From the NCBI GenBank assembly GCA_965248535.1, contig CBDFJR010000002.1:1760001-1824000 (forward strand): DNA of 64,000 bases, read 5' to 3'. A program made the translations under genes and the position numbers. The stretch comes from Phormidesmis sp. (GTDB taxonomy: Bacteria > Cyanobacteriota > Cyanobacteriia > Leptolyngbyales > Leptolyngbyaceae). Positions 3,545 through 54,314 of this stretch are shown here, piece after piece (within the stretch, counting starts at the first letter, position 1; each line of letters opens with the position of its first letter). A model generated the notes under the pieces. The model was not told where the DNA came from and made no database searches. It saw only the letters and a list, made by a program, of their open reading frames with translations.

Positions 3545-5305
3545 TCAGCGGTCAAAGAATGCCGCGATCGATTGCTTTAAATATTCCAACTGAAAATATT
3601 CAAATAAGCGATCGCCAGAATCGGCTCTTACTAGCCCTAAAATCACCTCTGGCAGCGCCGCTCGACCCGGAAACACGAGATAGCGTGGCTCCCACTGTGG
3701 CTGAAATTTTTCCTTAAATTGATGCAGCCCTTTGAAGTTATAGAACTGGTTAAGGTGGTTAAACAGATAATTTAGAGCTTTCTCAACCCTGCGAGCAGTC
3801 GGCTTTGCGCCAACGCCTGCCAGGGGTGAAAGACTGAGATTAAAACTGTCGTATTTTGCCTCTTTAAAGTGTTGAAACATTGAGACAAACAAAAAATCCA
3901 TGGTGCCTTTTTCGGCATCTAATCGGTGACGCATTAGATCGATCGTCACTTCTCTGCGGTTATAGCCAGACAGCAAGTTTGCAAAAGCGACCACCTGATT
4001 GTCAGCATCATAGACGACGGCGATCAAGCAATCGCCCAAATAGTCTTCATCAAACCAGCCGATCGAAAACTGTTTTTCTGACCCTTGCTTGTCTTTTAGC
4101 CATTCGTCGCTGACGGGTTTTAGCTGCTGAAATAATTCTGGTGGAATCGGCGATTCATACAGGCTAAAACGGTAGCCTGCTTTGGCCGATCGATTCAGCG
4201 CTGTGCGGAGATTTTGCGCTGCTTTTCCTTTGAGGGTAAAGGTGGTTAAGTCTACGATCGCTTCTTCGCCGATTTGAATCTGCTGAAACCCTAGCTTAGA
4301 GTAGCGCTCTAGCTGATCGGTTGCGGTTTCATAAAAAGCGGGAAACCAGTCGTTGCGATCGCAAAATTGACTAAAGGTAAGAATTGCTTCGACCCGATCT
4401 TGCACCGGACCGATGGGATCGCCCAACGCGATCGCGGCTCGGCCTTTAGACACATAGGCGATCACACTTTGCCCAGACGGACTGAAATAGTAGCTCTTAT
4501 CTTTGAGCAACGCCAGCCGCGCTAGCGAGGTCTGCCCAGATTGGTCGATGATCTCTCTAGCGCGTCTACGATCGCTCACAGTTGCCGGAGCACCCCGCAG
4601 CAACACCGGCCGCAACAGCATGAACAATGCATAAATTAATGTGGTTGCACCGACAATATAAATAGAATTAATGAAAAACGCGCCATAGCGAGTGGTGGGT
4701 TCTAGCCCAGCGTTATCTTCAGTAAAAAAGATCGCTAACGTTTGCTCGATCGAGGCAAACAACCCAAAATTAATGGGTTCGCCATTGACTTTAAAGCGTC
4801 CATCCAGCACATAAAAGCCAGCCGTTCCATAGGCGATCGTAAACAGCAGTGCCCCAATCAAAACGCGAACGCCTTGAAAAATAGACGGGCGATCGGAGCG
4901 CGCCGTAAACGTTTTCCGCATCACGATGAGTTGGATGAGAGGCACGATCGCAAACAAGCCTTCTTCATAGTCCAGCCCTTTGATCAGATGGCTGGCGATC
5001 GAGAGTCCCAGCAGAGCCACCGTCAGCACCCAGGCCACATGCTTACGTCGTAAAAGATTGGCAGACAGCGTGAGCAGCAAAAAGCCCGTCAGTGCCGCAA
5101 AGACGTGCCCCCCCGCTCGAATCGGAAAGGGGAAAACAGGCATGAGCCATCTGACCCGTTCGGGGAGGCTGGGTGACACCGCCGACAATACATTCACTAA
5201 GCCGACTAAGCCCGTCCAGATCGAGACAGTCCATAGCGCGATGCGAGTTCGATGTTTTAGCCCGATCGACATGGGCTTAGGTTTGGGCCGCTCCTGTGCG
5301 CTCAT
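3545..5305 (-). CDS. MprF/LysX-like aminoacyl-phosphatidylglycerol synthase (DUF2156 domain), short form without full flippase domain
   Basis: About 6 N-terminal TM helices. ALGDPIG, IGEEAIVDL, EKQFSIG, IDLMRH, GTMDFLF and YNFKGLHQFKEKFQPQWEPRYL are characteristic DUF2156 motifs. Start overlaps the esterase stop (ATGA). Confidence 0.9.
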   Translation of the reverse strand: MSAQERPKPKPMSIGLKHRTRIALWTVSIWTGLVGLVNVLSAVSPSLPERVRWLMPVFPFPIRAGGHVFAALTGFLLLTLSANLLRRKHVAWVLTVALLGLSIASHLIKGLDYEEGLFAIVPLIQLIVMRKTFTARSDRPSIFQGVRVLIGALLFTIAYGTAGFYVLDGRFKVNGEPINFGLFASIEQTLAIFFTEDNAGLEPTTRYGAFFINSIYIVGATTLIYALFMLLRPVLLRGAPATVSDRRRAREIIDQSGQTSLARLALLKDKSYYFSPSGQSVIAYVSKGRAAIALGDPIGPVQDRVEAILTFSQFCDRNDWFPAFYETATDQLERYSKLGFQQIQIGEEAIVDLTTFTLKGKAAQNLRTALNRSAKAGYRFSLYESPIPPELFQQLKPVSDEWLKDKQGSEKQFSIGWFDEDYLGDCLIAVVYDADNQVVAFANLLSGYNRREVTIDLMRHRLDAEKGTMDFLFVSMFQHFKEAKYDSFNLSLSPLAGVGAKPTARRVEKALNYLFNHLNQFYNFKGLHQFKEKFQPQWEPRYLVFPGRAALPEVILGLVRADSGDRLFEYFQLEYLKQSIAAFFDR

Positions 5306-6351
5306 TGGTTGGGTTCTCCCTGGGGTTGAGCGGTGGGTGCTGCTAAAGTCTTAGGCATCTCTGGCTGACGAGTTCCCTGGGTTACTGGCGGTTGCATGTC
5401 TGTTTTGGTTGCGGGAGGGGCATCAGCGGGCGATTTGGGAAGAGAAGCTCTAAATTGTTTGCCGACAAAGGTCAACGAGTCAGCTAAATGAGTGTGCCAA
5501 TAATTCCAGCCTACGTTTTTTCCGACGATCCCGTGTCCTCCAGGAAACACGTTGAATTGATTGGGAATGTTCAACTGATCAAGGGCTTGGTGAAACTGCT
5601 GAGTTGCCTGCAAATATTTAGCATCTTCTTTTCCTGCATCTAAGTACACCCGCAATTGAGGACGAATTTCTAGGGGAATTTGCTGAATAAACAGTTGAGG
5701 GCTGTTGTCTTCGCCACTATTATCTTTAAAGTAGCCCGTGTGGCTGAAGAGGATATGAAATTCATTGAGGTAGCGCAATCCAATATTCAACGCTCCCCAA
5801 CCGCCAGACGATAGCCCCCCGATCGCCCAAAATTGGGGTTCTCTAAGCGATCGATAGCGAGTTTTTACATCGTTGACCAGATCTGAGCCAATGAGGGTGG
5901 CCACTTTGCCGTTATCTCCGTCGTAGTATTGAGGATCCCATAATGGGCTACTGCCTCGATGGTCGTTGCCATCGGGTGTGATGATGATTGAGGGCGGAAG
6001 CTTACGATCGCGGTAAAGGTCATGCAGCACTGAGGTGAGGGCAGCTTTATCTTCAAAGTCTCGCTCGGTGCCGTGCCCTCCGTGCAGCAACACAATCACG
6101 GGATAGCGTCGATGGGGCTTTTTGCCATAACCAGGCGGCAGCACCACTCCATATCGCCGTTCACCACCCATTGCCTCGCTGTTAAACGTTTGGACTTTGA
6201 AGATCAGTCCTGTTTCTGGCTCGGCTTGCGGCGCGTCGATTTGAGGCGCACCTTCTATAAAAATATACCAATAGCCTGCGGCAGCTAAAGCCGTTAGACC
6301 GAGAGCACCGCCGATGATCAGGTTGCGATAGAGGTTTTTAGAACGCTTCAT
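5302..6351 (-). CDS. Membrane-anchored alpha/beta-hydrolase, esterase (antigen-85/Fes-like) family
   Basis: Likely ATG at 6351 (MKRSKN) followed by a TM helix. YPVIVLLHGG, nucleophile elbow GLSSGG, YLDAG..D, PGGH. Confidence 0.85.
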   Translation of the reverse strand: MKRSKNLYRNLIIGGALGLTALAAAGYWYIFIEGAPQIDAPQAEPETGLIFKVQTFNSEAMGGERRYGVVLPPGYGKKPHRRYPVIVLLHGGHGTERDFEDKAALTSVLHDLYRDRKLPPSIIITPDGNDHRGSSPLWDPQYYDGDNGKVATLIGSDLVNDVKTRYRSLREPQFWAIGGLSSGGWGALNIGLRYLNEFHILFSHTGYFKDNSGEDNSPQLFIQQIPLEIRPQLRVYLDAGKEDAKYLQATQQFHQALDQLNIPNQFNVFPGGHGIVGKNVGWNYWHTHLADSLTFVGKQFRASLPKSPADAPPATKTDMQPPVTQGTRQPEMPKTLAAPTAQPQGEPNQ

Positions 6352-6884
6352 GCAGAAAGAGACATAGCAAGACAGTTTGACCCATTTAGGATAGACGCAG
6401 TTTGCAGAAAATCTCAATCTGGCCTTGTCAGTTCATTTTTTGGGTACAGACTCAGGGTTTTTGGGCTTGGAGCGAGTTTTCTCAGACTCCTCAGCCTTCT
6501 ACGACGTGATGGTCTCGATTTGGGCACCCTAGTGCTAGACAGTCAGAGGCAAGTTTGGGGCAACTCTAACTGACTAACGAGATGAGTTTAGCGACTTATT
6601 CTGATGAGTGTCACCGTTGCTCTAGGGCTTTTTGCCTGCTTTATAAAGTGACAGAATTCATGAATAGAGCGGACGGGAAATCGGAATATTTGCTTCAGAG
6701 TAAACCCGTAGAACTACCGTGGCATGATCCCAGAGAGGATGTTAATTCTCTATAAAGACTAGAGACGCTTCCAAAACAAACCTTGACGACGCTGATGAGT
6801 TAACGACTTGAATCTTATCTGGATTTTTGAGTTAACTGATTGATCGAACGTCTCTTAAACAGTTAGTTCCTAAAGCATTGAGGC

Positions 6885-7520
6885 ATGACGATGAGCGAGA
6901 TTACTAAAGAAGAAGTCCGTGAAAAGCTCGGTAATATTGACCAAATTCGTGACATTATTTTTGGGTCACAAATTCGGGAATACGACAACCGCATCAGCAA
7001 GGTTGAGTCTGATCTCTTGATGGTGCAGCAAGACCTGCGCGATCGCCTTGAGCAGGTCAAAAACGGGGTTTCTATTGAGCTTAAAGCTGCCGTCGAAGCG
7101 ATAGAGAAAAAGCTGAAGCTGTTCAATTCTTCTTCTCAAGAAGAGTGTGCAGATTTACGGCAGCAGATCGATCGCGCCAATCGCAGATTTTCTAGCAGCA
7201 TCCAAGCGCTAGATGAAGCGTTAGATTCTCAAACTGCCTCGATTCGCAGCGACTTGGGTGACACCAAGAACAAGCTTCAAGACGATGCAGGAGCGCTAAG
7301 AGATTTGGTGTTAGGAGAACTCGATCGGCGGTTTTCTCAGTTAAGAGAGACAAAAGTCTCTAAAGATGACATCGCAGAAAGCTTGTTTGAGCTTGGAATG
7401 CGGCTAAAGGGAACAGAGTTTGTGCCTAAACTGCGAGAAGTTGCCAACAGCAGCCATCATACCTCTGTGCCTTTGTTAGAAACACGCAAATTTTCGGAAG
7501 AGTTGACTCATTCAACTTGA
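6885..7520 (+). CDS. Coiled-coil hypothetical protein
   Basis: 211 aa with heptad/apolipoprotein-like pattern and N-terminal IDQIRDIIFG motif; first gene of the + strand run. Confidence 0.8.
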   Translation: MTMSEITKEEVREKLGNIDQIRDIIFGSQIREYDNRISKVESDLLMVQQDLRDRLEQVKNGVSIELKAAVEAIEKKLKLFNSSSQEECADLRQQIDRANRRFSSSIQALDEALDSQTASIRSDLGDTKNKLQDDAGALRDLVLGELDRRFSQLRETKVSKDDIAESLFELGMRLKGTEFVPKLREVANSSHHTSVPLLETRKFSEELTHST

Positions 7521-7600
7521 GGTTTCTTCCTCAAAATGGATTGCTATCAACCTTCTAAATCTGCCATTTGTCACTGGTCGATAGCCTCCTACGCAAATCT

Positions 7601-7667
7601 GCCTCCTAAATCTCCTGATTCTGGAGGGCTTTGATTCCGGTTCCCTCAGAATTGGGGCTAGGTGGGC
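7601..7667. repeat. Degenerate cyanobacterial dispersed GC-rich palindromic repeat (REP/MITE-like)
   Basis: CCTAAATCTCCTGATTCTGGAGGGCTTT...TTCCCTCAGAATTGGGGCTAGG: imperfect inverted repeats resembling the CCCCCAATTCTGGGGG-type repeats of filamentous cyanobacteria. Confidence 0.5.
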
Positions 7668-7719
7668 TTCCGACGATTCGCATTTGGTGAATGGCAGACT
7701 GCGAATGCCGAACCCGTGA

Positions 7720-9948
7720 ATGAGCCTTGCCCCAACTATGGCTGAGACAAACGATCTTACCGTTGAGTCATCTCAATTTAGCCCGGCTGAAGTCGATCAG
7801 CTTGGGCGTTTTTTTGATCTGCTGGTTGACTTAGAAATCATTGATCTACCTGCAAAGTCTCTTGGCTCTGTTTTGGTTGATGCGATCGCGGCTGATGATT
7901 CTCTAGCTGCACCAGAGCCGGATCTGCCCGTTCAATTAGCTGACGCTCCTTTAGTTGCACCAGAACCAGATTTGCCCGTTCAACTTGAGTTCGGGGCGGC
8001 TCTCTGGGCTGACTCAACCGAGGCTGACTCAACCGAGATAGTGGCGATCGCACCGCCTGCTTTAGAGCCACCCGAAGATGCGGTGATGGCCCTAGATCTG
8101 CTGCGAGGGCTGGTGTTGGGGGCTGAAATGTCTGAGGTTCCTCAAAAACTGAGTCAACTAGAGCAACAGATCTATCAGCCCAATGAGTTAAAAAATCTGT
8201 TGCTGCCCTTGGTTGCAGAGCTTTTGCGTCAGACCGTGATCGACTCTCAAGAAGACGTTGTGCAAGCGATCGCGCCCATTATCGATCAAGTGATTCAAAG
8301 TCGAATGGATCACGATCGAGCCTTGATGGGTTTGGCCCTGGCTCCAGCAATTCCTGGGGCAATCACTGAGCAGATTCGCATTTCTCCTGAAGAGTTATCG
8401 ACGGCAATTTCGCCTGTGATAGGAAAAGCAATTCAAAAGCAGATCGTCATTGAGCAAAATACGATCGTCGATGCGCTATACCCCATCATTGGCGGCACGA
8501 TTTCTAAGTACATGGTGGAGACGATCCGAGCGATTAACCAGCAGGTTGAAGAAGCTCTCAGCCCCGCCGGAATTAAACGTAAAATTCGGGCAAAACTTCA
8601 GGGGGTTTCAGAGGCAGAACTCATTCTCAGAGAAGCGGCCCCTTTTACAGTGCAGGCCGTTTTTTTGATTCACAAAGGGTCGGGTTTGGTGATTTCAGAG
8701 ATCCAACGAACCGACAGCCAGCGACTAGAGTCCGACATGATTGCAGGAATGCTGACGGCAATTTGCAGCTTTGCCAATGACTGTATTTCTCAGGCTGGGG
8801 CTGTCTCAGAGCTAGACTCGATCGACTATGGCATGTCTAAAATCATTTTAGAAGTCGCTGGGCATTGCTATCTAGCGATCGTGATTCAAGGAGAGCCAAC
8901 GAAGCAATTTATTGAAGAAATTCGTCAAACACTCCGCAGTTTAGTGACTAACCATAGCACCGTGTTTGAGACATTTAATGGTGATCCTGACTCGGTGCCT
9001 AGTGCAGTCAACACGATTCTAGAATCGCTCAGAAACTCTAGTGCCCCAGACGAGAAATCGTCAGAAAATCGACCGTCTCCACTGGTGCTGATTGGCTTGG
9101 GCGTGTGCAGCTTAATTGCCATTCCATGGGGTTTTTTGCAGTATCGCGGTCATGTGAATCATCAGGCTGAAGTGACCACCACTGCTGCACTGTTATCGGC
9201 TCCAGAATTGGCGGTTTATCGGTTGATGGTGGAGGCTCACTCTGGCAAGCTCAAGTTAACTGGGCAGGTACCCAATCTTGAGTTGCGGCAGAAAGCAGAA
9301 CATCTTGCCACAATCGCCGCGCCCAAAAATTGGTCGATCGAGAACGATATTTTAGCGGTTGAGATTCCTCCAGATCCGGTTTTGACAGCGGCTGAGGTGC
9401 AGCGAGTCACGACTCTGTTTAATCGGATGGAGGGCGCTGCGATCGTAACTCGATACACAGAGGCTCAGATTTCAGTTGAGGGAAGCGTTCTTCGTCTGGC
9501 AGATGCCAAAACCATCACCCAAGGATTTCAGCGCATTCCGGGCGTGAAAGCTGTGTTTAGCACCGTGCAGGTGCAGCCATTAAAAATAGACTCTCGACTC
9601 TATTTTCCAACGGGTTCAGCCCTGTTAAACGCTGAGGATCTAAACAGCAAACTTCAGTCAGTCAAGTCTTTTCTTGATCTGCATTCTCAGACACCGTTGA
9701 AAATTATTGGCTATGGCAGTGCTAGCAATCGCCCGATCGCCGATCAAAAGCTGGCGCTTGAGCGTGCGATCGCGGTACGGACAGCCCTAATTGAACTGGG
9801 AGTTGCGCCCGATCGCTTGCAGGTCAGTGGGGCAGGGGGGTTGCCTCCGGGCATTGAGCCAACTCAACCTGATTGGCTGAGTCGATGCGTTGTGTTTGAA
9901 GTGATCCCTCCCAAACCAGGATCAAACCCATCAAATAAAGAAAGATAA
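7720..9948 (+). CDS. Inner-membrane protein: helical repeats, longin/roadblock-like domain, TM helix, BON domains and C-terminal OmpA-like peptidoglycan-binding domain
   Basis: TM segment LVLIGLGVCSLIAIPWGFL. BON-like KLKLTGQVPN..LRQKAEHLA and ISVEGSV..IPGVKAV. OmpA-like LYFPTGSALL..IIGY..LALERAIAVRTALIELGV..RCVVF. Confidence 0.85.
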   Translation: MSLAPTMAETNDLTVESSQFSPAEVDQLGRFFDLLVDLEIIDLPAKSLGSVLVDAIAADDSLAAPEPDLPVQLADAPLVAPEPDLPVQLEFGAALWADSTEADSTEIVAIAPPALEPPEDAVMALDLLRGLVLGAEMSEVPQKLSQLEQQIYQPNELKNLLLPLVAELLRQTVIDSQEDVVQAIAPIIDQVIQSRMDHDRALMGLALAPAIPGAITEQIRISPEELSTAISPVIGKAIQKQIVIEQNTIVDALYPIIGGTISKYMVETIRAINQQVEEALSPAGIKRKIRAKLQGVSEAELILREAAPFTVQAVFLIHKGSGLVISEIQRTDSQRLESDMIAGMLTAICSFANDCISQAGAVSELDSIDYGMSKIILEVAGHCYLAIVIQGEPTKQFIEEIRQTLRSLVTNHSTVFETFNGDPDSVPSAVNTILESLRNSSAPDEKSSENRPSPLVLIGLGVCSLIAIPWGFLQYRGHVNHQAEVTTTAALLSAPELAVYRLMVEAHSGKLKLTGQVPNLELRQKAEHLATIAAPKNWSIENDILAVEIPPDPVLTAAEVQRVTTLFNRMEGAAIVTRYTEAQISVEGSVLRLADAKTITQGFQRIPGVKAVFSTVQVQPLKIDSRLYFPTGSALLNAEDLNSKLQSVKSFLDLHSQTPLKIIGYGSASNRPIADQKLALERAIAVRTALIELGVAPDRLQVSGAGGLPPGIEPTQPDWLSRCVVFEVIPPKPGSNPSNKER
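7909..8037 (+). repeat. Intragenic tandem duplications (APEPDLPVQL x2; perfect 15-bp GCTGACTCAACCGAG x2 at 8008-8037)
   Basis: Read directly from the sequence and its translation. Confidence 0.9.
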
Positions 9949-10031
9949 ATTTCTGTTTATTTTAGCGACTTAATTGAGCATTCTTGTAGTGTGTTCTTTA
10001 GAGAGCGCACTTATCGAATTTGAAGTGGATA

Positions 10032-10562
10032 ATGTCTATAATTTCCAAAAAAGTGTGTTTAGTGGGTGACTTTGGGGTTGGTAAAACAAGTTTAATTCGT
10101 CAGTTTGTCGATCGCCAGTTCAGCGATCAATATCTTTCCACAGTGGGCGTTAAAATCTCTCGAAAGGCCATCGACGTTTTGAAGCCTAAATCACAGTTAA
10201 CTCAGAGTTTGCAGCTTTTAATTTGGGATCTTGAGGGCAACACTAAGTTTAAAGCGATTACTCCCAGTCATCTGCAAGGAGCGGCGGGGGTAATTATCGT
10301 GGGAGACGTGACTCGATCGGAAACTCTAGATCACCTATCTGGGCATATCCAGAGTTTTTTAGCCATAAATTCTCAGGGGGCGATCGTGCTGGCCCTAAAC
10401 AAGTCAGATTTGATTCAAGAAGAAGATCTAGACGTTTTGCTAAAACGACACTATGGAGATCAACCAAACCTCTTGGGCATTTATCCTACCTCGGCAAAAA
10501 CGGGAAATAATGTTAACCAAATTTTTGAAATCTTATCTCAAAAGCTAGTCGAATCACTATGA
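10032..10562 (+). CDS. Rab/Ras-like small GTPase
   Basis: G1 GDFGVGKT, G2 YLSTVG, G3 WDLEG, G4 NKSD, G5 TSAK; likely ATG at 10032. Confidence 0.92.
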   Translation: MSIISKKVCLVGDFGVGKTSLIRQFVDRQFSDQYLSTVGVKISRKAIDVLKPKSQLTQSLQLLIWDLEGNTKFKAITPSHLQGAAGVIIVGDVTRSETLDHLSGHIQSFLAINSQGAIVLALNKSDLIQEEDLDVLLKRHYGDQPNLLGIYPTSAKTGNNVNQIFEILSQKLVESL

Positions 10563-10732
10563 AAACGCGCCTAAAACAGCCCCTATTGATCCAAAAACTT
10601 GAATAAAAAATCTTTAAAATCAGGGATTCAATTTTCTTAGTTAGGCGTTTACAGTCTTTTGCTTATCAGCCATTGGTCGCTCTAACTTTAACTGCACTTG
10701 CTCCGATAAATCTTGAATAGCTCTACACTGCT

Positions 10733-13123
10733 ATGACTCTTTCTTCTGACCTTAATCGTCTGTGTCTCTTTAGTAAACTTTTAACGTCTCGATCTATCGA
10801 ATATCTGATCGTAGATCAAGAGTTAAAGATTAATGAAACCTCTGCTGGGGCACATCGATATGTCCAATCACCGAGTGATGTAGCACCCGGAAGAGATGTT
10901 CGTGATAGTTTTCCTGAGCTATATGGCTATGAAGAGACTCTCAATGATGTCTTGCAAAAACGGCAAGAGAGACTTGACATTACAGAAATTGCCCGATCGC
11001 TGACGCGCAGCGCTGAAGGGTCATTAGACTTGCCGACCCTTGTTTATATCGATCTCCATATTCTCGAAAATCAGTCTCTTGAAAATAGCTTTGTGATCTT
11101 GATAGAAGAGATTACAGAAGCGATGGTTTTGAGACAATCCCTCGTTCAAGCTGCCAATGAAGCGAATCTTTTATTGAGACAATTAGGGGCTTCTAAGAAA
11201 TATACCGATCAGATTATTACCGCTATCCCTGATGCCTTGATCGTGACAACGCGATCGGGAAAAATTAAAACAATTAATCCGGCTGCAAAAATTCTGTTTG
11301 AATACACAGAAGACGAGCTGCTGGGGCAACCGATTTCAAGTCTTCTTTCAGAGTTGCAGTTTCCCTATCCTACGATCGCTCAAAGTCCTCAAGCTTCAGA
11401 GTCTAGTGAACTTCCTAAAGAAATTGAAACCGTCTGTCAAACAAAGTCAGGTAAAAAAGTCTCGATCGCTGTTTCTTGCTCGACTCCACAGGTAGATATC
11501 GAAGACTTTCAAAGTGTGGTTTATATCGTTCGAGATATGACCGATCGCAAGCAAGCAGAACTGGCAAAACGTGAGTTTTTAGCCATGATTAGTCATGAAA
11601 TTCGCACCCCGATGAATGCTGTCATTGGCATTGCTGGCTTATTGCTAAACACTGAGCTAACGCCTCAACAGCGCGACTTGATAGAAATCATTGGAACCAG
11701 TGGCGATGCACTGCTCACGATCATCAATGACATTCTCGACTTTTCTAAAATGGAGTCTAACAAACTGGAGTTAGAAGAACACCCGTTTAATCTTAGAACT
11801 TGTGTTCAAGAAGCGCTGAATCTACTCACGCCCAAAGCGGTAGAAAAAGGACTCAAGCTTGCCTTTATTGCTGACGCGACTCTGCCGACGCTCGTCGTCG
11901 GAGACAGCACTCGACTTCGCCAAATTTTGATTAACTTACTCGGCAATGCCATCAAGTTTACGCCAACCGGAGAAGTGACAATATCCGCAACGGCCGTGTC
12001 AATCACGCCTACTCCCCAATCGACGCTCCTTTGCGGCATTGAGTTTGCAGTTAAAGATACAGGCATCGGAATCTCCCACGATCGCCGCAATTGTCTATTT
12101 CAAGCCTTTAGTCAGGTAGATGCCTCGATTACCCGGCAATATGGTGGCACGGGGTTGGGGCTGGCGATTTGTAAACAACTCAGCAACCAAATGGGCGGGA
12201 AAATCTGGGTTGAAAGTGAGCCAGGGCAAGGCAGCACGTTTTACTTTACGATCGTGGTCGAAGCGCCTTCTGAACCCGCCATCCCAGAGAGCACACGTCC
12301 TCGACTGTCAGTAGATACTCAGTTTGCTCAACAACATCCTCTGCACATTTTGTTGGCTGAAGATCATCTAGTTAATCAAAAGCTGATGGTGATGGTCTTG
12401 CAGCAGTTAGGCTATCAAATTGATGTGGTCAACAACGGCTTAGAAGTTTTAGACGCTCAACGCAAACAGCCCTATGATGTGATTTTGATGGATGTGCAGA
12501 TGCCCGAAATGGATGGCATCACGGCTACGCAACAAATTTGCCAAACTTGGGCACCGGACGATCGTCCCTACATCATTGCCATGACGGCTAATGCCCTGCG
12601 AGACGATCGTCAACGTTGCCTAGAATCGGGCATGGACGACTATATTACCAAACCCGTCTGCCTAGAAGCGTTAATGCAAGTGTTAAGCAAATGCAAGCCT
12701 CATAGACGTGCTCAGACCCAAGCCCAGCCAGAAAACACCTCCGATTTACATCTCGAATTAGCGCCTCAGACAGTGCGAATTGATTTAGATGCGCTGCAAG
12801 AAATCTATCAAATTGGCGGAAACTCGACAGAATTTTTGGTAGAGATGATTGACTGCTATCTCGAAGAAGCTCCTAAGCTTTTGAAAGCCGCAAGAGATAG
12901 TCTGCTCCAACAAGACCTTATAAAGTTGAAACGAACTGCTCACACGCTGCAATCGAGTAGTGCAACGCTGGGTGCAACAAAACTAGCAATGCTGTGTATA
13001 GAGCTTGAGTCAATGGTCATGACCGATTCACTAACGGCAGCCGCCCATCACGTTGCAGCGCTAGAACTAGAGTATCAGGAAGTAGAAACTGTTTTGCAGC
13101 AAGAACGCCAAAAGCTTCTATAA
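10733..13123 (+). CDS. Cytoplasmic hybrid histidine kinase (PAS-PAS-HisKA-HATPase-REC-HPt)
   Basis: [46 protein letters not shown]. Confidence 0.95.
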
Positions 13124-13207
13124 ATGAGACTTTTGAGACAACAAACCTCTCCTCAAGTTTTGCCAAATTTGGGGGAGCATTTTTTGGCGTTAGCTTTTAA
13201 CTGATTT

Positions 13208-13216
13208 GGTCATACT
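13208..13216 (+). promoter_or_regulatory. Candidate group-3 sigma (SigJ/SigF-type) -10 box GGTCATACT
   Basis: Resembles the GGGaAtacT consensus; 33 nt upstream of the 13250 start. Confidence 0.3.
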
Positions 13217-13249
13217 AACTGAGTAGTATCTACCCAATATGCTTGATGT

Positions 13250-14410
13250 ATGACAACCTTTTTTAGGGATCAGGTTTTTTTTGAGACCCGATCGCGTCAG
13301 ACGTTAAACCTGCGATCGTCTCAACGGGCTTGGGCCGTTCTCTGGCGTTTGGCAAAGCCCCTTATTGGCAGTGTGAGCCTGTGTCTCAGCGCTGTCTACC
13401 CAGTTCAATCCGTCCCTAAAATTCCTGTCTCAAATTCGGCTAAGTTTTTGATTGCTGGGGCAGATAACTTTAACCCTGGCTTAGAGTTGTTGCCCGTCAA
13501 ACCAGAGCAGCCTAGTTCAGCTAGGGATCTGATAGAAGCGCCATCTCCTAAAGTGGGACTAGAAAGCCTGAAAACTGACTTTCGCAACGATCGAGACAGT
13601 TCAGGTCAGCGGAATCGATTTCTGGGCGAAACGGCTCAGTTTCGCTTAAAAAATGGCAACATGGTTCAGTTTAAAACAGGGTTGAATTCCTTTAAGCAAA
13701 CGGGAGCAGAATCTGTCATTAATAGTCCGCTTCAAGTGGGCTGGGAGGGCAAACTTGGTCATTTTAAGGTGCGCGCAGAGGGCGGCGTTGACCTATTTGA
13801 TCGGTTGCCTGTCGCCCCTAACTTTAGCATTGAAGCCAGTGTTCCTATTTTGCCTAACGCTACGTTATCAGCAGTGTTAGAGAAATCGCCTTATAAGTTT
13901 AATGCTAAAACGCTCAATCATCAAATCTCAGCATTGCGGTTTGGGCCAACGTTGTATGTGCAAATCGATCGCAACACGAGTTTATTTTCTTTTTATCGTC
14001 GAGGCAACTACAGCGACGGCAATCACGAACATCAGTCTTTTACGAGACTAGAACATAAATTTGGACAGTTTTCTGTGTCAGCTAATCTATTCACTTGGAA
14101 CTACGAACACAACGCGCTGGATCGAAAGGGATATTTTTCTCCTCAAGATTTCTTGGTCTATAACGGCGAAATTGGTTGGGAGGGAGATGTGTTTAAGTTT
14201 CTGCGATGCGGACTCACTGCCTCCTTGGGGCGGCAACGGCTAAAGGGTGATTTCTCGAATGCAAACACCTATCAAGCTCACTGCATGGCTCAGGTATCCC
14301 CTCATGTGGAAGCAGGCTTGGGTTACACCTTTAGCAATGTCAAAACTCAAGGCACAGGAGATAGTTCCAATAGTCAGGCGCTGACAGGTCAACTACGCAT
14401 TACGTTTTAG
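13250..14410 (+). CDS. Putative outer-membrane beta-barrel (BcsC/PgaA-type polysaccharide export pore)
   Basis: Amphipathic alternating beta-strands, YSDGN and GYFSPQDF motifs, terminal Phe (GQLRITF) typical of the BAM signal; lies upstream of the glucan genes. Confidence 0.65.
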   Translation: MTTFFRDQVFFETRSRQTLNLRSSQRAWAVLWRLAKPLIGSVSLCLSAVYPVQSVPKIPVSNSAKFLIAGADNFNPGLELLPVKPEQPSSARDLIEAPSPKVGLESLKTDFRNDRDSSGQRNRFLGETAQFRLKNGNMVQFKTGLNSFKQTGAESVINSPLQVGWEGKLGHFKVRAEGGVDLFDRLPVAPNFSIEASVPILPNATLSAVLEKSPYKFNAKTLNHQISALRFGPTLYVQIDRNTSLFSFYRRGNYSDGNHEHQSFTRLEHKFGQFSVSANLFTWNYEHNALDRKGYFSPQDFLVYNGEIGWEGDVFKFLRCGLTASLGRQRLKGDFSNANTYQAHCMAQVSPHVEAGLGYTFSNVKTQGTGDSSNSQALTGQLRITF

Positions 14411-14511
14411 CATCGGGATGTGAATCTTAGGATTAATATCACGTTGATTTCAGTGTTTGTATGAAAACGATTGAGTTAAATCGCATCTAACAGCGTTTTC
14501 AGACCATTGGC

Positions 14512-14520
14512 GGGAACACT
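14512..14520 (+). promoter_or_regulatory. Candidate SigJ/SigF-type -10 box GGGAACACT
   Basis: 8 of 9 match to GGGAATACT; 37 nt upstream of the 14558 start. Confidence 0.5.
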
Positions 14521-14557
14521 AGACATAATCGTTAACAACAAAATCAAGAGCTAGCTC

Positions 14558-16882
14558 ATGAATTCTGATTTTGAGCCACCACCAAAGGGATGGTCAATTC
14601 TAGCTTCTGTCGGCGGAGTAATCACTGCGATCGCAGTTGTGACCAGTCTAGAATCGCTGTCAAGTTACTTTCATAGAACAGATTCTGCATCCGTGTCGAA
14701 AGCGGCAATGATCACGCAGCGCGAATCAGAGCGATTGCTAGATCACACAGTCGAGCAGCAAGCGGCTGCCTGCAAATTTAACCAAAGTATGGCCCCCGAT
14801 CGGGGGATCAAGTTTGAGACTAAAACGTTTCTTAGCCAAGCGATGGGGCAAGTGCGTAGCTATGGTGTGGTGCTGCCTCCCGGCTATGATCAAACGTCTC
14901 AAAAGCGTTACCCGGTGATTTTCTTACTGCACGGCGGGCACGGAGATGCAGGTGGATGGCAAACCTGCGCAGCGATTACCGAAGTGCTGCATAAACTCTA
15001 TAGCAACGGCAAGCTTCCACCTGCAATTATCATCACACCCGATGGCAACGATCGCCGAGGATCAAGTGCCCGCTGGGACCCTGAATATTTTGACGGGGTG
15101 AATGGACGAGTCGCTACCCTAATTGGCTCTGACCTAGTGCAAGAGGTGAAATCGCAGTATCAAGTGCTGAATGATCCCGAATTTTGGGCGATCGGAGGGT
15201 TGTCTTCGGGCGGCTGGGGCGCTTTGAATATTGGGCTGCGCTATGGGGATCAGTTCCACCTTTTGTTTAGCCATAGCGGTTACTTTACTGATGTTAGTGG
15301 GCCCGAAAATAGCCCCGCTGAGTTAGTGCAAAAAATTCCGGCTGAACAACAACAGCAGCTAAAAATTTATTTGGATGCAGGCGCTTCTGACAAACGATTT
15401 TTAGACTCTACTGAGCAATTCCACAAAGTTCTTCAGCGCTTGTCGATCGAGCATGAGTTTCATATGTTCACAGGAGGACATGGCACGACGGGTCAAGACA
15501 GTGGCTGGCGTTATTGGCATGAACATCTAGCTGACTCATTGAGCTATGTCGGCTCTAAATGGCTTGGCAATAGCATAGCTATGTCGCCCGTGGAGAGGGC
15601 TAGTTTAGATGCTCAATTTGCAAAGGTGCTTGACAAAGGGATGGGCGCAAAACCGTCTGAGGTGAAGGTGCAAAATGGGGGTGAGGCTAAAATGTTGACC
15701 GCACAAGAGCTTCAAACAGCACGTCTAGCTTGGAAATATTTTCAGCGCAACTGGAATGAGAAGACGGGCTTGATTAATTCGGCTGATGACTTTGCATCGG
15801 TAACGTTGTGGGATCAGGCTGCCGCGATCGCCGCGATCGTCAGCGCTAGAGAACTCGATTTGATTTCAGACGTAGAGTTCAACGCCAAAATGAATGGGAT
15901 GTTAACCACATTGGCAACGCTGCCCCTCTACAAAAATGAGTTGCCCAACAAAGTTTATAACACCGAAACGCTGCTACCCGTGGATTATGGAGAGTTAACT
16001 AAACGCAAGGAGATTGGTTGGTCAGCGATCGACCTAGGACGTATGGCGCTCTGGCTTAAAATTGTGGGTTCAAAATATCCTCAGTTGCGGACTCAAACAG
16101 AGGCGGTTTGGCAACACTGGAAGGTCGAGCGATTGGTTAAAAATGGGCAACTGTATGGAACAACAGTCAGCGCCCGCGGCGATGGAACAGTCCAGACTAA
16201 AGAACAATATAACCAAGAAGGACGCTTGGGCTATGAAAACTATGCGGCTTATGGGTTAAAGCTGTGGGGCTTAGATGTCAAACAAGCGCTTGATACTCAG
16301 TCAAATGTGGCATTTGTCAATCTCTATGGGCAGGATGTTCCTTATGACCAGCGAGACTATCAGACCTCAGGAGCCAACAATTATGTTCTTAGTGAGCCTT
16401 ATATCTTAGACGGCATTGAGACAGGGTTTCAGGCATTGCCTAAAGCCTATGCCGATCGCGTGTTAGCGGCTCAAGAAGCTCGCTATCAGGCAACCAAACA
16501 GTTGACGGCGATTACTGAAGATAACCTCGATCGTGCGCCTTATTTTGTCTATAACACGCTGTTTGTCAATGGTGAATCTTGGGCAACCATCACCGACACG
16601 CGCCAAAATCGCAACAATCTGCGGTTTCTCAGTGCAAAAGCGGCGATCGGTTGGCACGTTCTCTATAACACGGCTTATACTCAACAACTATTTGAGTTTG
16701 TTCAAGCCAAGCTAAAAAGCGAAACAGGCTGGTACAACGGTTTCTATGAATCTCTGAATCAGCCTAACCGATCGCTGACCGCAAACAACAATGGCGTGAT
16801 TTTAGAAAGTCTGCTCTACAAAAAAGTTGGGCAGCCTCTCACCGTTTGGGCAGGCATTCCATCCTCTGAGCAACCTCATTAA
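14558..16882 (+). CDS. Esterase-DUF3131 fusion protein with N-terminal membrane anchor
   Basis: TM helix, then esterase (LLHGG, GLSSGG, GGHG), then DUF3131 (ARLAWKYF, TLWD, LPNKVYN, GWSAIDLGR, EGRLGYENY, TANNNG). Confidence 0.85.
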   Translation: MNSDFEPPPKGWSILASVGGVITAIAVVTSLESLSSYFHRTDSASVSKAAMITQRESERLLDHTVEQQAAACKFNQSMAPDRGIKFETKTFLSQAMGQVRSYGVVLPPGYDQTSQKRYPVIFLLHGGHGDAGGWQTCAAITEVLHKLYSNGKLPPAIIITPDGNDRRGSSARWDPEYFDGVNGRVATLIGSDLVQEVKSQYQVLNDPEFWAIGGLSSGGWGALNIGLRYGDQFHLLFSHSGYFTDVSGPENSPAELVQKIPAEQQQQLKIYLDAGASDKRFLDSTEQFHKVLQRLSIEHEFHMFTGGHGTTGQDSGWRYWHEHLADSLSYVGSKWLGNSIAMSPVERASLDAQFAKVLDKGMGAKPSEVKVQNGGEAKMLTAQELQTARLAWKYFQRNWNEKTGLINSADDFASVTLWDQAAAIAAIVSARELDLISDVEFNAKMNGMLTTLATLPLYKNELPNKVYNTETLLPVDYGELTKRKEIGWSAIDLGRMALWLKIVGSKYPQLRTQTEAVWQHWKVERLVKNGQLYGTTVSARGDGTVQTKEQYNQEGRLGYENYAAYGLKLWGLDVKQALDTQSNVAFVNLYGQDVPYDQRDYQTSGANNYVLSEPYILDGIETGFQALPKAYADRVLAAQEARYQATKQLTAITEDNLDRAPYFVYNTLFVNGESWATITDTRQNRNNLRFLSAKAAIGWHVLYNTAYTQQLFEFVQAKLKSETGWYNGFYESLNQPNRSLTANNNGVILESLLYKKVGQPLTVWAGIPSSEQPH

Positions 16883-16884: not shown

Positions 16885-19563
16885 ATGCAGCACTACCATC
16901 AGCCAAATTGGGTTAGGTCGATTGCCCTGTTTCTAGTCGGGGTCAGTCTTCAGTTTTTGTTCCATGCGTCTACACCCGCCTCAACCGTTGCTCAACCGCC
17001 GGGTATGATCCCTAGCAATCAGTGCGCTGAGTTGCTTGCACCGCTGACTTCTGAAGAAGAAGGCTATGCTCGAACGGCCTGGCAATACTTCCTCAACAAT
17101 TATCAGACCACAACTGGGTTTACTAACTCTGTTGGAAATTATCCTTCTGGCTCAATGTGGGATATGGGAAACTATTTGATGGCATTGAATGCTGCGCGCT
17201 GGCTGAATCTGATTAACCAGGCAGACTTTGACAATCGCCTCAACAAGTTTTTGACCACCCTCAGCGGACTGAAACTGTTTGATAATGCTCTGCCCAACAA
17301 AACCTATAATGCGGCAACTGGAGAATTGGTGGACTATGGCAACAAAGCTGTAGAACGAGGCATCGGTTGGTCGGCGCTAGATATGGGACGAATGCTGTCA
17401 GCGTTTCACGTCATCCGCACTTGTCATCCTCAATATAACGATTGGCTCAAAGGCATTGTGGCGAAGTGGAAGCTGGCAGACTCGATTCGAGATGGGCAAC
17501 TCTATGGGGCGATCGTGACTCCAGAGGGCAAAACTCAACTAGTTCAAGAGGGGCGGCTGGGCTATGAAGAGTATGCGGTGAGAGGCTATGAGCTTTGGGG
17601 CTTTAAGGCAGACAAAGCACGATCGCTTCAGCCCTATAAATTTGTTGATCTCTACGGAATTCAAATTCCTGTTGACAGTCGCGATTTTCAAAACTCAGGT
17701 GCCAACAATTATGTAGTCAGTGAGTCCTATATCCTAGACGGAATTGAGTTTGGTTTGCAGGGCGACATGGCAGATTATGCTTCTAGAGTCCTAGAGGTTC
17801 AAAAGCGGCGCTATGAAACCACTCAACAGTTAACGGCCGTCTCAGAAGATAACCTCGACGGCCCGCCCTACTTCATTTACAACACAGTCTATGCCAATGG
17901 GGTGCCTTGGGCAGCCATCACAGATGCAAACCAGCCTTATCCACAGTTTCGCAACATTAGCACTAAGGCGGCCTTTGGCTGGCGCTATTTGTTCCCGACT
18001 AACGACTATGCTCAAAAGGTCTTTGATGCCGTCAAAACTTTGCGGAGTGACGATGGCGGCGGCTTCTTGGCGGGACTCTATGAAGAATCGAAGCAGCCCA
18101 ACAAAACTTTAACAGGCAATACTAATGGCTTGATTTTGGAGATTTTGTACTACAAAGCTAGAGGGAACCGATCGCTGATAGGCGGTACTCCTTCGACGTT
18201 GACCCAGATTGCTCCGATCGTGGCTGTTGGCACTCCACAGCCTTCGCCCAATTCTGCGCTCAGTCAGCCTTTGTCAGAAACAGAACGCCGCTCTGCTCAG
18301 GCTGCGTGGCAATACTTTAAAACCAACACTCAAGCCACTGGGTTAGTCAACGATCGTAGTGATTTCAAAGGTGCATCGCTCTGGGGCATCGGAGATTATC
18401 TTGCAGCCCTGCACGCAGCGCGATCGCTCGATATCATTTCGGGTCAAGAATTTGAGCAGCGAGTTCGGCAGAGTTTGAGCACGATCGAGCACTTGCCTCT
18501 CTTCGCCGGAGAGTTGCCCAATCGCGGCTATGATCCCTGGTCGCTGCAACCTGTTGATTATGGCGACAACCCAACACTGGATGGAACAGGCTGGTCAGCT
18601 TTAGATGTGGGTCGATTGTTGTCAGCTTTATATAATCTCAAAACAGGTCATCCTGAATATGCTGCCGCCGTTGATCGCATTCCCCTTGATTGGTCTTATC
18701 TGCGAGTTGTGCGCGATCAGAGATTGTTTAGCGCCAAAGTGAGTCGAGATAGCCGCGGGCGATCGCTGACCCGGTTAGTTCCAGAAACTCGCCTGGGCTA
18801 TGAAGAATATGCCGCCCGCGCTTTACAGCTTTGGGGATTTGACGTTGATCGGGCCACGATCGGAGGACATTATCAAACCCTATCGATCGCAGGCATAGAG
18901 GTGCCGACTCAGCGCCAGCGATCGGGCCGCAACCCAGACCCCAATCTCCACACTGTCAGCAATCCTTTTTTACTCTATGGTTTAGAGTTTGGCTTTGATC
19001 CACAGATGCGATCGCTGGTTCAGCCCCTTCTCAAGGCGCAGGCAGAGCGCTATCGCACCACCCATACTCTCACGGCTGCGGCAACCACCGTAATTGACCG
19101 CCCTCCCTACGTGATTCACAGCACGATCGTGGGTCAAGGCGAACCTTGGGCAACGCTAGCAGATGATGGTCGATCAGTTCCCGATCTGCGAATGGTCAGC
19201 ACCTCTGCTGCCTTTGCTTACCATGCCTTGTTTCCGACTGAGCCATATACTCAGGCATTGCGGGCAGCGATCATAGACCTAGCTAATCCCTCCCAGGGCT
19301 ACCCAGAGGGTCGTGATGAAAAAACTGGCAAGGCGGCTACGGTGTTCACGGCTGAGACAAACAGCCTGATTTTGCAATCTATTTTGTATCAAGCCACGCG
19401 GCAGCAGCCGTTGACCCAATCTACCCCAGCGCTCAATTCTCCTTGGTGGGAAGCATTAACCAAAGGAGACTTCGATCGAGGGTTGCCCAAAGTCACTCAA
19501 CAAACGGCCCAACGGGTCACGGATGACACCGGAACCTATTGGACTTCGACCCGGCACAAATAA
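16885..19563 (+). CDS. Secreted protein with two tandem DUF3131 (putative glucanase/transglycosylase barrel) domains
   Basis: Signal-like N-terminus; AWQYF..LPN..Y..GWSALD.GR..RLGYEEY occurs twice. Confidence 0.88.
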   Translation: MQHYHQPNWVRSIALFLVGVSLQFLFHASTPASTVAQPPGMIPSNQCAELLAPLTSEEEGYARTAWQYFLNNYQTTTGFTNSVGNYPSGSMWDMGNYLMALNAARWLNLINQADFDNRLNKFLTTLSGLKLFDNALPNKTYNAATGELVDYGNKAVERGIGWSALDMGRMLSAFHVIRTCHPQYNDWLKGIVAKWKLADSIRDGQLYGAIVTPEGKTQLVQEGRLGYEEYAVRGYELWGFKADKARSLQPYKFVDLYGIQIPVDSRDFQNSGANNYVVSESYILDGIEFGLQGDMADYASRVLEVQKRRYETTQQLTAVSEDNLDGPPYFIYNTVYANGVPWAAITDANQPYPQFRNISTKAAFGWRYLFPTNDYAQKVFDAVKTLRSDDGGGFLAGLYEESKQPNKTLTGNTNGLILEILYYKARGNRSLIGGTPSTLTQIAPIVAVGTPQPSPNSALSQPLSETERRSAQAAWQYFKTNTQATGLVNDRSDFKGASLWGIGDYLAALHAARSLDIISGQEFEQRVRQSLSTIEHLPLFAGELPNRGYDPWSLQPVDYGDNPTLDGTGWSALDVGRLLSALYNLKTGHPEYAAAVDRIPLDWSYLRVVRDQRLFSAKVSRDSRGRSLTRLVPETRLGYEEYAARALQLWGFDVDRATIGGHYQTLSIAGIEVPTQRQRSGRNPDPNLHTVSNPFLLYGLEFGFDPQMRSLVQPLLKAQAERYRTTHTLTAAATTVIDRPPYVIHSTIVGQGEPWATLADDGRSVPDLRMVSTSAAFAYHALFPTEPYTQALRAAIIDLANPSQGYPEGRDEKTGKAATVFTAETNSLILQSILYQATRQQPLTQSTPALNSPWWEALTKGDFDRGLPKVTQQTAQRVTDDTGTYWTSTRHK

Positions 19564-19626
19564 GGGCAGGACTGGCTCCTACTGTTGCCCTCACTCCCAT
19601 CTGTCACGTTCACCTACCAAACTGGT

Positions 19627-22013: not shown

Positions 22014-22077
22014 CGCTATTTGAAGAGTACAAAAGGTCAGATTACCCATTTGTCTGATGAAACAGCAGATCCACCGG

Positions 22078-22102
22078 AGGGCACGGGCTATCGTGCCCTT
22101 TT
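22078..22102 (+). terminator. Hairpin terminator / REP-like palindrome
   Basis: AGGGCACG-GGCTAT-CGTGCCCT followed by a T run, between convergent genes. Confidence 0.55.
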
Positions 22103-22217
22103 ACGATCGCTTGTCCCATAATTCTGTCAGTTTAACGAGAGTTTGATGGAATTTCCCGCGGGGGTTTCTCCTCTAAAAATGCTTCTAGAATGCGGGGAAA
22201 GACTGACTGAACTGACG

Positions 22218-54235: not shown

Positions 54236-54314
54236 TAGTCAGAGTGGGTGGTGTAGGTGTGTGAGTTTAGGATGCCCGCCTATAAATTGCTTTTCACAGA
54301 ACGCTGCTTTTTGA

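Follow-up and report, generated by a model that had tools for sequence, protein, structure and literature searches.

Why should a relative of an esterase that accompanies a putative aminoacyl-lipid synthase be built into a protein of a glucan cluster? This question is raised by a window of DNA from Phormidesmis sp., by which we mean the whole stretch of 64,000 nucleotides that was analysed. A gene at 14558..16882 (+ strand) forms a single uninterrupted frame of 774 aa. Pfam matches and an AF2 model divide its product, the fusion protein, into a transmembrane (TM) anchor, an esterase domain, a disordered linker, and a DUF3131 barrel.

The lipid side of the question lies upstream. The gene at 3545..5305 (- strand) encodes a putative short MprF-type aminoacyl-lipid synthase with about five TM segments and a DUF2156 catalytic domain. 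It matches PF09924 (LPG_synthase_C) over the full length of the model (1-298; E 5.8e-93, 311.7 bits), and its hydrophobic segments all fall inside residues 22-230. The flippase half is absent from this protein: NF033480 scores 510 bits, below the cut-off of 600, and only model positions 313-840 are aligned. A genome-wide search for the flippase domain also gave nothing above the cut-off, the best PF03706 match reaching 27.6 bits against 33.4. The neighbouring est1 (5302..6351, - strand) encodes a membrane-anchored, PesT-like PF00756 esterase (E 1.6e-20, 74.4 bits, cut-off 22); its ORF spans 5302-6417, with the ATG at 6351 as the likely start. The stop of est1 and the start of the DUF2156 gene share the 4-nt overlap ATGA, in agreement with the translational coupling claimed by an earlier, sequence-only reading of this DNA.

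The co-occurrence of the two families was also checked. Esterases of the est1 type adjoin DUF2156 in 29 of the 30 genomes of a phylum sample and in 51 of 56 genomes of the order. Esterase-bearing genomes carry DUF2156 in 30/30 cases in the phylum sample and in 53/56 cases in the order (base rate 56/90), and so do 20 of the 21 order genomes with at least two separate esterase copies; a second, unlinked copy is present in 5/7 DUF2156-positive but 0/5 DUF2156-negative genomes of genus g178. Such counts overstate the association, because duplication presupposes a parent gene and relatives are not independent cases.

Inside the fusion, hydropathy reveals one hydrophobic segment, residues 13-31 (14594..14650, +; peak 2.04), which the model renders as a helix at 15-38. 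The esterase domain (residues 80-338; 14795..15571, +) is followed by a flexible linker with pLDDT <50 throughout (residues 339-374; 15572..15679, +) and by an (alpha/alpha)6 barrel (15680..16879, +) whose domain model has a pLDDT of 95.6; the mean for the whole fusion is 86.9. The Pfam matches cover residues 93-328 for PF00756 (88.4 bits, cut-off 22) and 387-758 for PF11329 (DUF3131). From this layout we infer a bitopic inner-membrane protein in which two independent periplasmic enzymes share one tether. The orientation of the anchor is ambiguous by the positive-inside rule, which counts against this arrangement.

BLASTP aligns est1 and the fused esterase with 158 of 267 residues identical (59%, E 3e-117), and both motifs quoted in the sequence-only reading are aligned; the resemblance is therefore far beyond chance. 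Thus est1 does have a close paralogue within ORF 14558, located between the TM anchor and DUF3131 as had been claimed. The predicted catalytic triad, in fusion numbering, consists of Ser216 (in the GxSxG motif), Asp278, and His308. Asp278 is presumably the catalytic aspartate, judging from an alignment with 5vol and from the fold. The apparent integrity of the triad noted earlier extends to all 13 DUF3131-linked esterases, and the same positions in the other 35 aligned family members hold Ser in 35, Asp in 34 (Glu in one), and His in 35.

The fused domain superposes on 5vol_B with Z 30.2, 243 residues being aligned at an rmsd of 2.3, and on 7xrt_A with Z 30.0. Foldseek gives a TMt of 0.83, and the sequence match to CE1 enzymes reaches an E of 3.6e-24. 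The nearest solved structures are CE1 feruloyl/acetyl-xylan esterases, and several of these form part of multi-enzyme proteins. Profile, fold, and triad agree in classing both the fused domain and est1 as PF00756/CE1-like alpha/beta hydrolases, with an activity predicted from these features. In both fold and sequence, CE1 enzymes (5vol, 7xrt, 1jjf, 1gkk, including modules of multi-enzyme xylanases) are the closest relatives, and like the fused esterase some are joined to a glycan-cutting domain. They differ in being secreted and degrading plant xylan, whereas the fusion is anchored in the membrane, is encoded in a cluster for glucan biosynthesis, and derives its esterase from a lipid pathway. 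Since est1, which is certainly not a xylan esterase, shares this CE1-like fold, the fold does not decide the substrate.

The phylogenetic tree gives the direction of descent. The DUF3131-linked esterases form a clade (SH-aLRT 99), with the fused ones as a subclade (SH-aLRT 100), and nest inside a clade of SH-aLRT 99 whose remaining 20 members are DUF2156 partners. This supports, at the level of sequence, the view that they arose from within the DUF2156-partner clade and are true paralogues. There are very few fixed differences between the two groups, and nearly all conserved positions are common to both. One difference is the loop after the HGGHG motif, which may indicate a changed substrate. 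Cys137, specific to the DUF3131-linked clade, is present in 12/13 members, and the Cys of the AAC(K/Q)F motif in 9/9 fused proteins; both are compatible with an oxidising compartment.

The other half of the fusion belongs structurally among enzymes of beta-1,2-glucan. Its barrel matches 8wy1_B with Z 37.3 over 356 residues, 8rf9 with Z 33.4, and 5gzh with Z 31.8 (4qt9, 5gzh, and 8xul all lie at Z 31-33), so that the beta-1,2-glucan cyclising and cutting barrels of GH189 and GH144 are the closest structures. GH144 matches have E values of 1e-10 to 2e-11, and Foldseek matches to the SGL clan range from 2e-11 to 1e-7. A search of the PDB with the DUF3131 sequence gave no match, and the superposed barrels share only 9-14% sequence identity with it. 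The domain is nonetheless a superposable (alpha/alpha)6 barrel, the fold that characterises the SGL clan (GH144, GH162, GH189, GH192-194). The clan-defining residues are E239, Y367, and F286 of XcSGL (PMC12102758). The DUF3131 alignment of 70 sequences contains conserved acidic columns, and its six invariant columns are all present in the fused barrel. The fused barrel is 74-80% identical to 78 stand-alone proteins and is the orthologue of a single-DUF3131 protein in other cyanobacteria.

An architecture search shows that the fusion is not a one-off, as the sequence-only reading had allowed it might be. PF00756 and PF11329 occur together in 9/9 database matches of 425-1355 aa, representing nine protein clusters that share 70-98% identity. 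An accidental, functionless fusion or an assembly artefact could be invoked for one of the loci, L001, where the gene of a MAG is interrupted (678 aa + 105 aa). The intact frame in Phormidesmis, the eight further intact clusters (760-793 aa) from different sources, and the triad in 13/13 proteins already contradict such an accident, which we regard as highly improbable. The esterase and DUF3131 are also fused in L032. In L005 and L038, a separate esterase gene (350 and 356 aa) lies directly 5' of the single-DUF3131 gene, and the N-terminus of its product is 48% identical to the anchor of the fusion. In L005, the single-DUF3131 gene is followed by a gene with three DUF3131 domains and then by a GT2 gene. 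The observed order of events is thus a separate neighbouring gene and then a fusion. This history in other lineages, together with the 70-98% conservation and the intact triad, supports a fusion maintained by selection, as judged from sequence. The association is narrow: it is found in 3/90 genomes of the order, or 3 of the 10 that bear DUF3131, and 0/50 long DUF3131 representatives from elsewhere carry an esterase Pfam. The esterase is thus an optional extra.

Because its parent, est1, is tied to a lipid-modifying enzyme, the fused copy might still act on lipid and not on glucan. It would then hydrolyse an aminoacyl-lipid or another membrane ester as est1 does, and the fusion would merely position it, for example to adjust local membrane charge. 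The close similarity to est1 in identity and in conserved positions is in line with such a role, as is the anchor that holds the domain at the bilayer. A stable fusion and an earlier conserved adjacency to a glucan-processing barrel would be difficult to account for if the two enzymes had no substrate in common, however, and est1 itself is kept in addition to the fusion in G000, G401/G467, G402, and G404. We consider a purely lipid-directed role quite unlikely.

The surroundings of the fusion point to glucan. The gene at 13250..14410 (+) encodes a probable outer-membrane barrel with a weak match to PF05420 (BcsC_C; E 5.8e-4), and its homologues (50-63% identity) are found at the equivalent place in L001, L005, and L038. 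Downstream lie an exported protein with two DUF3131 barrels (16885..19563, +; two PF11329 stretches, hydrophobic N-terminus at residues 10-28) and a putative BcsA-like GT2 glucan synthase (19585..21624, +; PF03552 and PF13641). A true BcsA was considered for the latter and rejected, as TIGR03030 scores 303.8 against a cut-off of 699.1 and PRK11498 215.5 against 992; no PilZ family is among its Pfam matches. By Pfam, partner-switching and two-component regulators occupy 21690-28971: a STAS protein (21690-22013, +), an RR-PP2C protein (22218-23366, -), an anti-sigma-type kinase (23565-23990, +), and a hybrid HK (23980-28971, -). In G467, a genome of the same genus, synteny with the cluster extends to the STAS, RR-PP2C, and anti-sigma-type kinase genes. 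On the other side, an OmpA/BON protein, a Ras-like GTPase, and a hybrid HK, likewise assigned by Pfam, are encoded at 7720..13123 (+), and G467 (L122) has homologues of these, at 54-70% identity, next to the cluster. The locus is best explained as a synthase-dependent glucan cluster under partner-switching control, made up of the outer-membrane barrel, the fusion, the double-DUF3131 protein, and the GT2. Its DUF3131 proteins differ from the solved beta-1,2-glucan barrels in that their partner is a BcsA-like GT2 and not GT84/GH94.

We put at roughly 0.55 the probability that the fusion is a periplasmic enzyme with two domains on a tether, acting on an ester substituent of the glucan of this cluster. 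According to this explanation, the esterase partnering a short MprF was duplicated and one copy recruited, at first as a separate gene before the DUF3131 gene and later by in-frame fusion. The fused esterase, with its PF00756/CE1 fold, would act as a serine esterase or as a transacylase, and the barrel would be one of the beta-1,2-glucanase/cyclase (SGL) kind. The former would add, move, or remove an ester substituent while the neighbouring barrel cuts or transglycosylates the chain. The fusion hints at an ester-linked decoration of the glucan. The enzyme would act on the glucan, judging from this context, and the ester would be one of two sorts: the family history of the esterase points to an aminoacyl group, and the CE1 resemblance, with an OpgC gene in related clusters elsewhere, points to a plain O-acyl group.

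In the latter case, the enzyme would be a plain carbohydrate esterase that removes O-acetyl, O-succinyl, or similar groups, and the DUF2156 link would reflect ancestry only. This form of the tethered-enzyme explanation is possible, though we would not expect it. It gains from the CE1 neighbours, which include esterases fused to glycoside hydrolases, and from the glucan acyltransferase gene opgC that is described for a related Klebsiella GT2-DUF3131 cluster (PMC12974863). An acyltransferase gene is absent from the window, where the three PF01757 matches of the genome do not lie, and from the cluster and its flanks here and in L001, L005, and L038; a deacylase would therefore have no obvious cluster-encoded source of ester.

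In the other form, the short MprF would make an aminoacyl-lipid from aminoacyl-tRNA, the lipid would be flipped, and the amino acid would pass through an aminoacyl-Ser216 enzyme to a glucan hydroxyl held by DUF3131, or would be removed from it. Such a relay needs no cluster-encoded acyl donor enzyme. It is favoured by the nesting of the DUF3131-linked esterases among DUF2156 partners, by the few fixed differences between the two clades, and by the way in which the esterase family tracks DUF2156. Antigen 85, a PF00756 mycolyltransferase, likewise uses a serine-esterase fold to pass an acyl group on from a glycolipid donor to a polysaccharide, and OpgB takes phosphoglycerol from PG and places it on periplasmic glucans. 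The acyl group of antigen 85 is a very long fatty acid; antigen 85 is not among the best 50 VIA-align entries for the esterase domain, an absence that excludes nothing. OpgB, OpgE, and OpgC/Cgm are membrane-bound decorators of periplasmic or cyclic glucans, with groups drawn partly from phospholipid head groups, and resemble the proposed enzyme in this respect, although the folds differ. Osmoregulated periplasmic/cyclic glucans are not known to carry an aminoacyl substituent. The analogous PesT of Corynebacterium glutamicum has been proposed to transfer from Ala-DAG to PG (PMC6103681), and a sugar lipid is reported as a substrate that MprF can aminoacylate (PMC8893666).

Several observations weigh against the relay. 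The approximately 8-kb closeness of DUF2156 to the fusion is found in this genome only and is not conserved even in the genus (G401/G467, G402, G404), where the DUF2156 operon is distant from the cluster; in G401, G402, and G404 it lies on other contigs than the esterase-DUF3131 gene. In L001 and L005, the 10 kb that precede the fused or adjacent esterase contain no DUF2156, and the genomes G407 and G468 have DUF3131 clusters but neither esterase nor DUF2156. One fusion-bearing genome shows no DUF2156 but is just 60% complete. The missing flippase domain and the altered HGGHG loop count in the same direction, and we regard the relay as unlikely. Accordingly, the earlier proposal that the fusion ties DUF2156 and the esterase to glucan machinery stands for paralogy, conserved fusion, and ancestry in the tree, but the proximity of the operon to the cluster is not conserved, and genomes with DUF3131 clusters but neither of the two genes speak against it.

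Known systems offer partial parallels. In the PesT-AlaDAGS operon of C. glutamicum, a "putative esterase" is encoded with a DUF2156 synthase and given a proposed transferase role (PMC6103681), and est1 shares an operon with such a synthase in the same way. The likeness is one of gene arrangement. In contrast to that system, the MprF here is short and belongs to a cyanobacterium, and one of two esterase copies has moved out of the operon into a glucan enzyme; the adjacency to DUF2156 is found for est1 and not for the fused copy (L001, L005, G401, G402, G404). AcvB/VirJ, AhyD, and the fungal ErdH are aminoacyl-lipid hydrolases of structurally unrelated types (PMC6103681; PMC7334510). They too are exported or anchored Ser-Asp-His hydrolases genetically paired with a DUF2156 synthase, but in these accounts none is reported as fused to a carbohydrate-active domain.

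The fusion, which occurs in a small group of cyanobacteria, joins two puzzles in one protein. For the PF00756-type esterase that goes with DUF2156 synthases, no function has been agreed on since PesT was studied (PMC6103681). For the widespread GT2-DUF3131 glucan clusters, no functional study was found in the literature searched, where DUF3131 was met as a gene label in lists. If the fused domain is a plain deacylase, it adds modestly to the known architectures of carbohydrate esterases. The doubtful alternative is a tRNA-dependent decoration of polysaccharide, in which MprF loads a lipid and a PesT-type domain transfers the amino acid, as an ester, to a beta-glucan that is periplasmic or exported. 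If it is real, this relay would settle the function of PesT-type esterases as transacylation, and aminoacyl-lipids would be donors and not just end products. The fusion could thus lead to a new kind of substituent on glucans and to a donor role for aminoacyl-lipids.

The DUF2156 gene (3545-5305, minus strand) encodes a protein of 586 aa that matches PF09924 in full and has some five hydrophobic segments. Its partner est1 (5302-6417, minus strand, with a probable start ATG at 6351) encodes a PF00756 esterase. The stop codon of est1 overlaps the start of the DUF2156 gene in ATGA, in keeping with the coupling of the two genes proposed in the sequence-only reading. The fusion gene (14558-16882, plus strand) encodes 774 aa with one hydrophobic segment (residues 13-31), PF00756 at residues 93-328 and PF11329 (DUF3131) at residues 387-758; the esterase thus lies between a TM anchor and DUF3131, where that reading had placed it. 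The fused esterase is indeed a close paralogue of est1, with 59% identity in an alignment of 267 residues (E 3e-117) that shows both motifs quoted earlier.

The Ser/Asp/His triad is intact as well. Ser216, Asp278 and His308 are found in all 13 DUF3131-linked copies (fused esterases, separate esterases encoded upstream of a DUF3131 gene, and one orphan) and in nearly all other copies. The DUF3131-linked clade and est1 have almost all conserved positions in common. The differences between them are at W335/F and in the loop that follows HGGHG (GDAGGWQxC versus a charged version in est1). Only the DUF3131-linked clade has Cys137 (12/13), and all nine fused proteins retrieved from the protein collection have another Cys within the motif AAC(K/Q)F. 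Judging from the sequences, these two residues would fit a periplasmic disulfide.

The full-length model of the fusion has a mean pLDDT of 86.9, with a disordered stretch at residues 339-374 between two confident domains. Modelled alone, the DUF3131 domain reaches a pLDDT of 95.6 and a pTM of 0.95. In VIA-align, it superposes best on 8wy1_B, a GH189 cyclisation domain (Z 37.3, rmsd 2.9, 356 residues); Cgs comes next with Z 33.4, then GH144 with Z about 32. Barrels of this kind make up the 'SGL clan' as defined in PMC12102758. The esterase domain most resembles CE1 feruloyl/acetyl-xylan esterases, both by sequence (5vol, E 3.6e-24) and by structure (5vol_B, Z 30.2, rmsd 2.3, 243 residues; 7xrt, Z 30.0; Foldseek TMt 0.83). 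Antigen 85 is not among the 50 VIA-align entries listed, an absence that excludes nothing.

The fusion is a member of a glucan cluster. This cluster also contains a probable outer-membrane barrel gene (13250-14410, weak BcsC_C match), an exported double-DUF3131 protein (16885-19563), which gave no match in a PDB sequence search, and a BcsA-like GT2 (19585-21624), which lacks a PilZ match and scores under the equivalog cut-offs for cellulose synthase. Beyond the GT2 lie genes for a STAS protein, a response regulator-PP2C, an anti-sigma-type kinase and a large hybrid histidine kinase. The upstream flank of the cluster encodes an OmpA/BON protein, a Ras-like GTPase and a hybrid kinase. In G467, a genome of the same genus, most of these cluster and flanking genes are kept together in a rearranged order. 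In the literature searched, DUF3131 is seldom mentioned; in extracts of PMC6382750 and PMC12974863, it appears as a gene label within a list and nothing more.

The Ras/Roc-type GTPase gene (10020-10562) is flanked by the OmpA/BON gene and that of the hybrid kinase. Since a 70%-identical copy adjoins the cluster in G467, the GTPase may be part of the regulation of the cluster. In the window, the multi-barrel protein contains two DUF3131 domains, as against three (1321-1327 aa) in two fetched loci, L001:12305-16288 and L005:12616-16581; one barrel has thus been lost or gained among close relatives. In L001, the outer-membrane barrel gene and the fusion are separated by a GH26-like gene (372 aa), which is absent at this place in the window. 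In a further locus, the outer-membrane barrel gene is immediately preceded by a sugar-nucleotidyltransferase gene (PF00483, L038:4567-5730), which may supply a sugar precursor. Elsewhere in the window, 45453-50414 (minus strand) encodes a protein of 1653 aa in which DUF5724, DUF4132 and DUF7737 domains are combined. A carbon-concentrating block (52119-64000) encodes a pentapeptide-repeat protein, a BMC shell protein and hexapeptide/RbcS-repeat proteins that resemble CcmN and CcmM, followed by NDH-1 F/D-type subunits and ChpXY. With its carboxysome and NDH-1/ChpY genes, the window (G000:C2:1760001-1824000) is cyanobacterial, and the named records closest to it also come from cyanobacteria.

We favour, with a probability of about 0.55, a tethered two-enzyme periplasmic protein. 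The DUF3131 barrel would process the glucan, and the esterase-fold domain, on the same tether, would act on an ester substituent of that glucan. Within this reading, a plain O-acyl esterase is a possible but doubtful refinement, to which the CE1 resemblance and the opgC of related clusters (an extract of PMC12974863) both point.

The fusion is no one-off, yet it is narrow. A search of a 5.8-billion-protein collection with the esterase part (E <= 1e-10) returned nine matches of 425-1355 aa, all of which carry PF00756 and PF11329 at 70-98% identity. In an even phylum sample of 401 genomes, the long frame is found only in G000, the source genome. Within the order, DUF3131 is present in 10 of 90 genomes and the fusion in three (G000, G467 and G448); within the genus, two of eight genomes have it. 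Recurrent fusions in other lineages were looked for and not found. No esterase Pfam was detected in 50 long DUF3131 representatives from elsewhere, scanned out of 150 listed (43 in which the DUF3131 match begins after residue 170, six proteins of 580-810 aa extending beyond DUF3131, and the two-stretch protein P0135), and PF00756 among the best 120 of 1739 DUF3131 matches is limited to eight of the nine fused clusters.

Among the 80 loci kept of 186 found, four carry the esterase, fused in L001 and L032 and separate in L005 and L038. The separate gene (350 or 356 aa) lies directly upstream of a single-DUF3131 gene, followed in L005 by a triple-DUF3131 gene and GT2; the L038 locus ends in an open frame. 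The N-terminus of the separate esterases is 48% identical to the fusion anchor, and the fused barrel shares 74-80% identity with 78 single-DUF3131 proteins that stand alone. The esterase gene was thus likely recruited beside a DUF3131 gene and then fused in frame, keeping its own anchor. That the fusion is a mere accident is very improbable. In the MAG locus L001:9998-12302, the fused gene is interrupted within the DUF3131 part (frames of 678 aa and 105 aa), through a frameshift or stop or an error in the assembly.

The esterase family is bound up with DUF2156. Of the 401 genomes in the phylum sample, 30 encode the esterase, and every one of these also has DUF2156; one copy adjoins DUF2156 in 29, and gene maps cover 19 of these genomes. 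In the order, each is found in 56 of 90 genomes, both in 53, and they are adjacent in 51/56. Completeness is 84, 72 and 60% for the three genomes with the esterase alone, and the three DUF2156-only matches are fragments or divergent. All eight genomes of the fusion's genus have DUF2156.

A quick IQ-TREE analysis (SH-aLRT only) covered 48 esterase domains, namely all 41 copies in the fetched loci and seven fused database proteins. It left out P0001 (near-identical to the window protein), P0005 (the protein of L001) and, from genera g6 and g29, ten near-duplicate genomes. All DUF3131-linked copies group in a single clade with a support of 99 (10 fused, 2 adjacent, 1 orphan; fused subclade 100), which represents few independent lineages (G000/G467, G448, G402, G404). 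It is nested in a 33-row clade (support 99) whose other 20 members are DUF2156 partners: 18 are directly adjacent, one has a flippase gene in between and one is unlinked; the order within the clade is unsettled. Older paralogues outside this clade are orphans, or stand in tandem before est1 in Nostoc-type genomes. DUF2156 is present in 20 of the 21 order genomes with at least two separate esterase copies, and in genus g178 a second copy occurs in 5/7 DUF2156-positive and 0/5 negative genomes. That the older unlinked paralogues follow DUF2156 is only suggestive, since related genomes are non-independent and duplication happens in genomes that have the parent gene.

The operon at L099:8021-11832 (G228) is a split MprF, with a DUF2156 synthase, a separate 320-aa LPG_synthase_TM (flippase-type) gene and the esterase. 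In G316 and G436, a short DUF2156 frame (343-369 aa) is followed by the esterase. Three Nostoc-type loci, L095, L096 and L097 (G306, G234 and G206), have two tandem esterase paralogues before DUF2156, the outer copy belonging to the older branch.

Another refinement of the tethered-enzyme reading, competing with the plain O-acyl esterase, takes MprF-made aminoacyl-lipid as the donor from which the fused esterase would move the aminoacyl group onto the glucan, or would take it off. We regard this as unlikely. It is favoured by the descent of the esterase family and its dependence on DUF2156, by a cluster that encodes no acyltransferase in the window, and by antigen 85 and OpgB, which are cases of lipid-to-glycan transfer. 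It also has a parallel in PesT, a putative esterase in an operon with the DUF2156 aminoacyl-lipid synthase of Corynebacterium glutamicum, which is proposed to carry alanine from Ala-DAG to PG (extract of a review, PMC6103681). A literature search on cyanobacterial aminoacyl-PG found no pertinent work. The observation behind the sequence-only reading is confirmed, and its interpretation is supported in part.

The DUF2156 operon lies 8 kb from the glucan cluster in this genome only. DUF2156 is absent within 10 kb upstream of the fused or adjacent esterase in L001 and L005, and is on other contigs than the DUF3131-linked esterase in G401, G402 and G404. This closeness, being unconserved, was rejected as a sign of a link. 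In same-genus genomes, the DUF2156-est1 operon has other neighbours, and G407 and G468 (both 99% complete) have DUF3131 clusters with neither esterase nor DUF2156. A second short MprF/DUF2156 gene of the source genome (G000:C5:1232444-1233331; L114:6737-8425) encodes 562 aa, 66% identical to that of the window; it has no neighbouring esterase and adjoins a DDE transposase gene. No flippase-domain match above the cut-off was found in the genome. A role of the fused esterase on lipid only is improbable; this role and an accidental fusion are less likely than the aminoacyl transfer and the O-acyl esterase. The tethered fusion protein varies kinds that are already known: the PesT-type MprF partner, the esterase-glycosidase fusion and the GT2-DUF3131 cluster.
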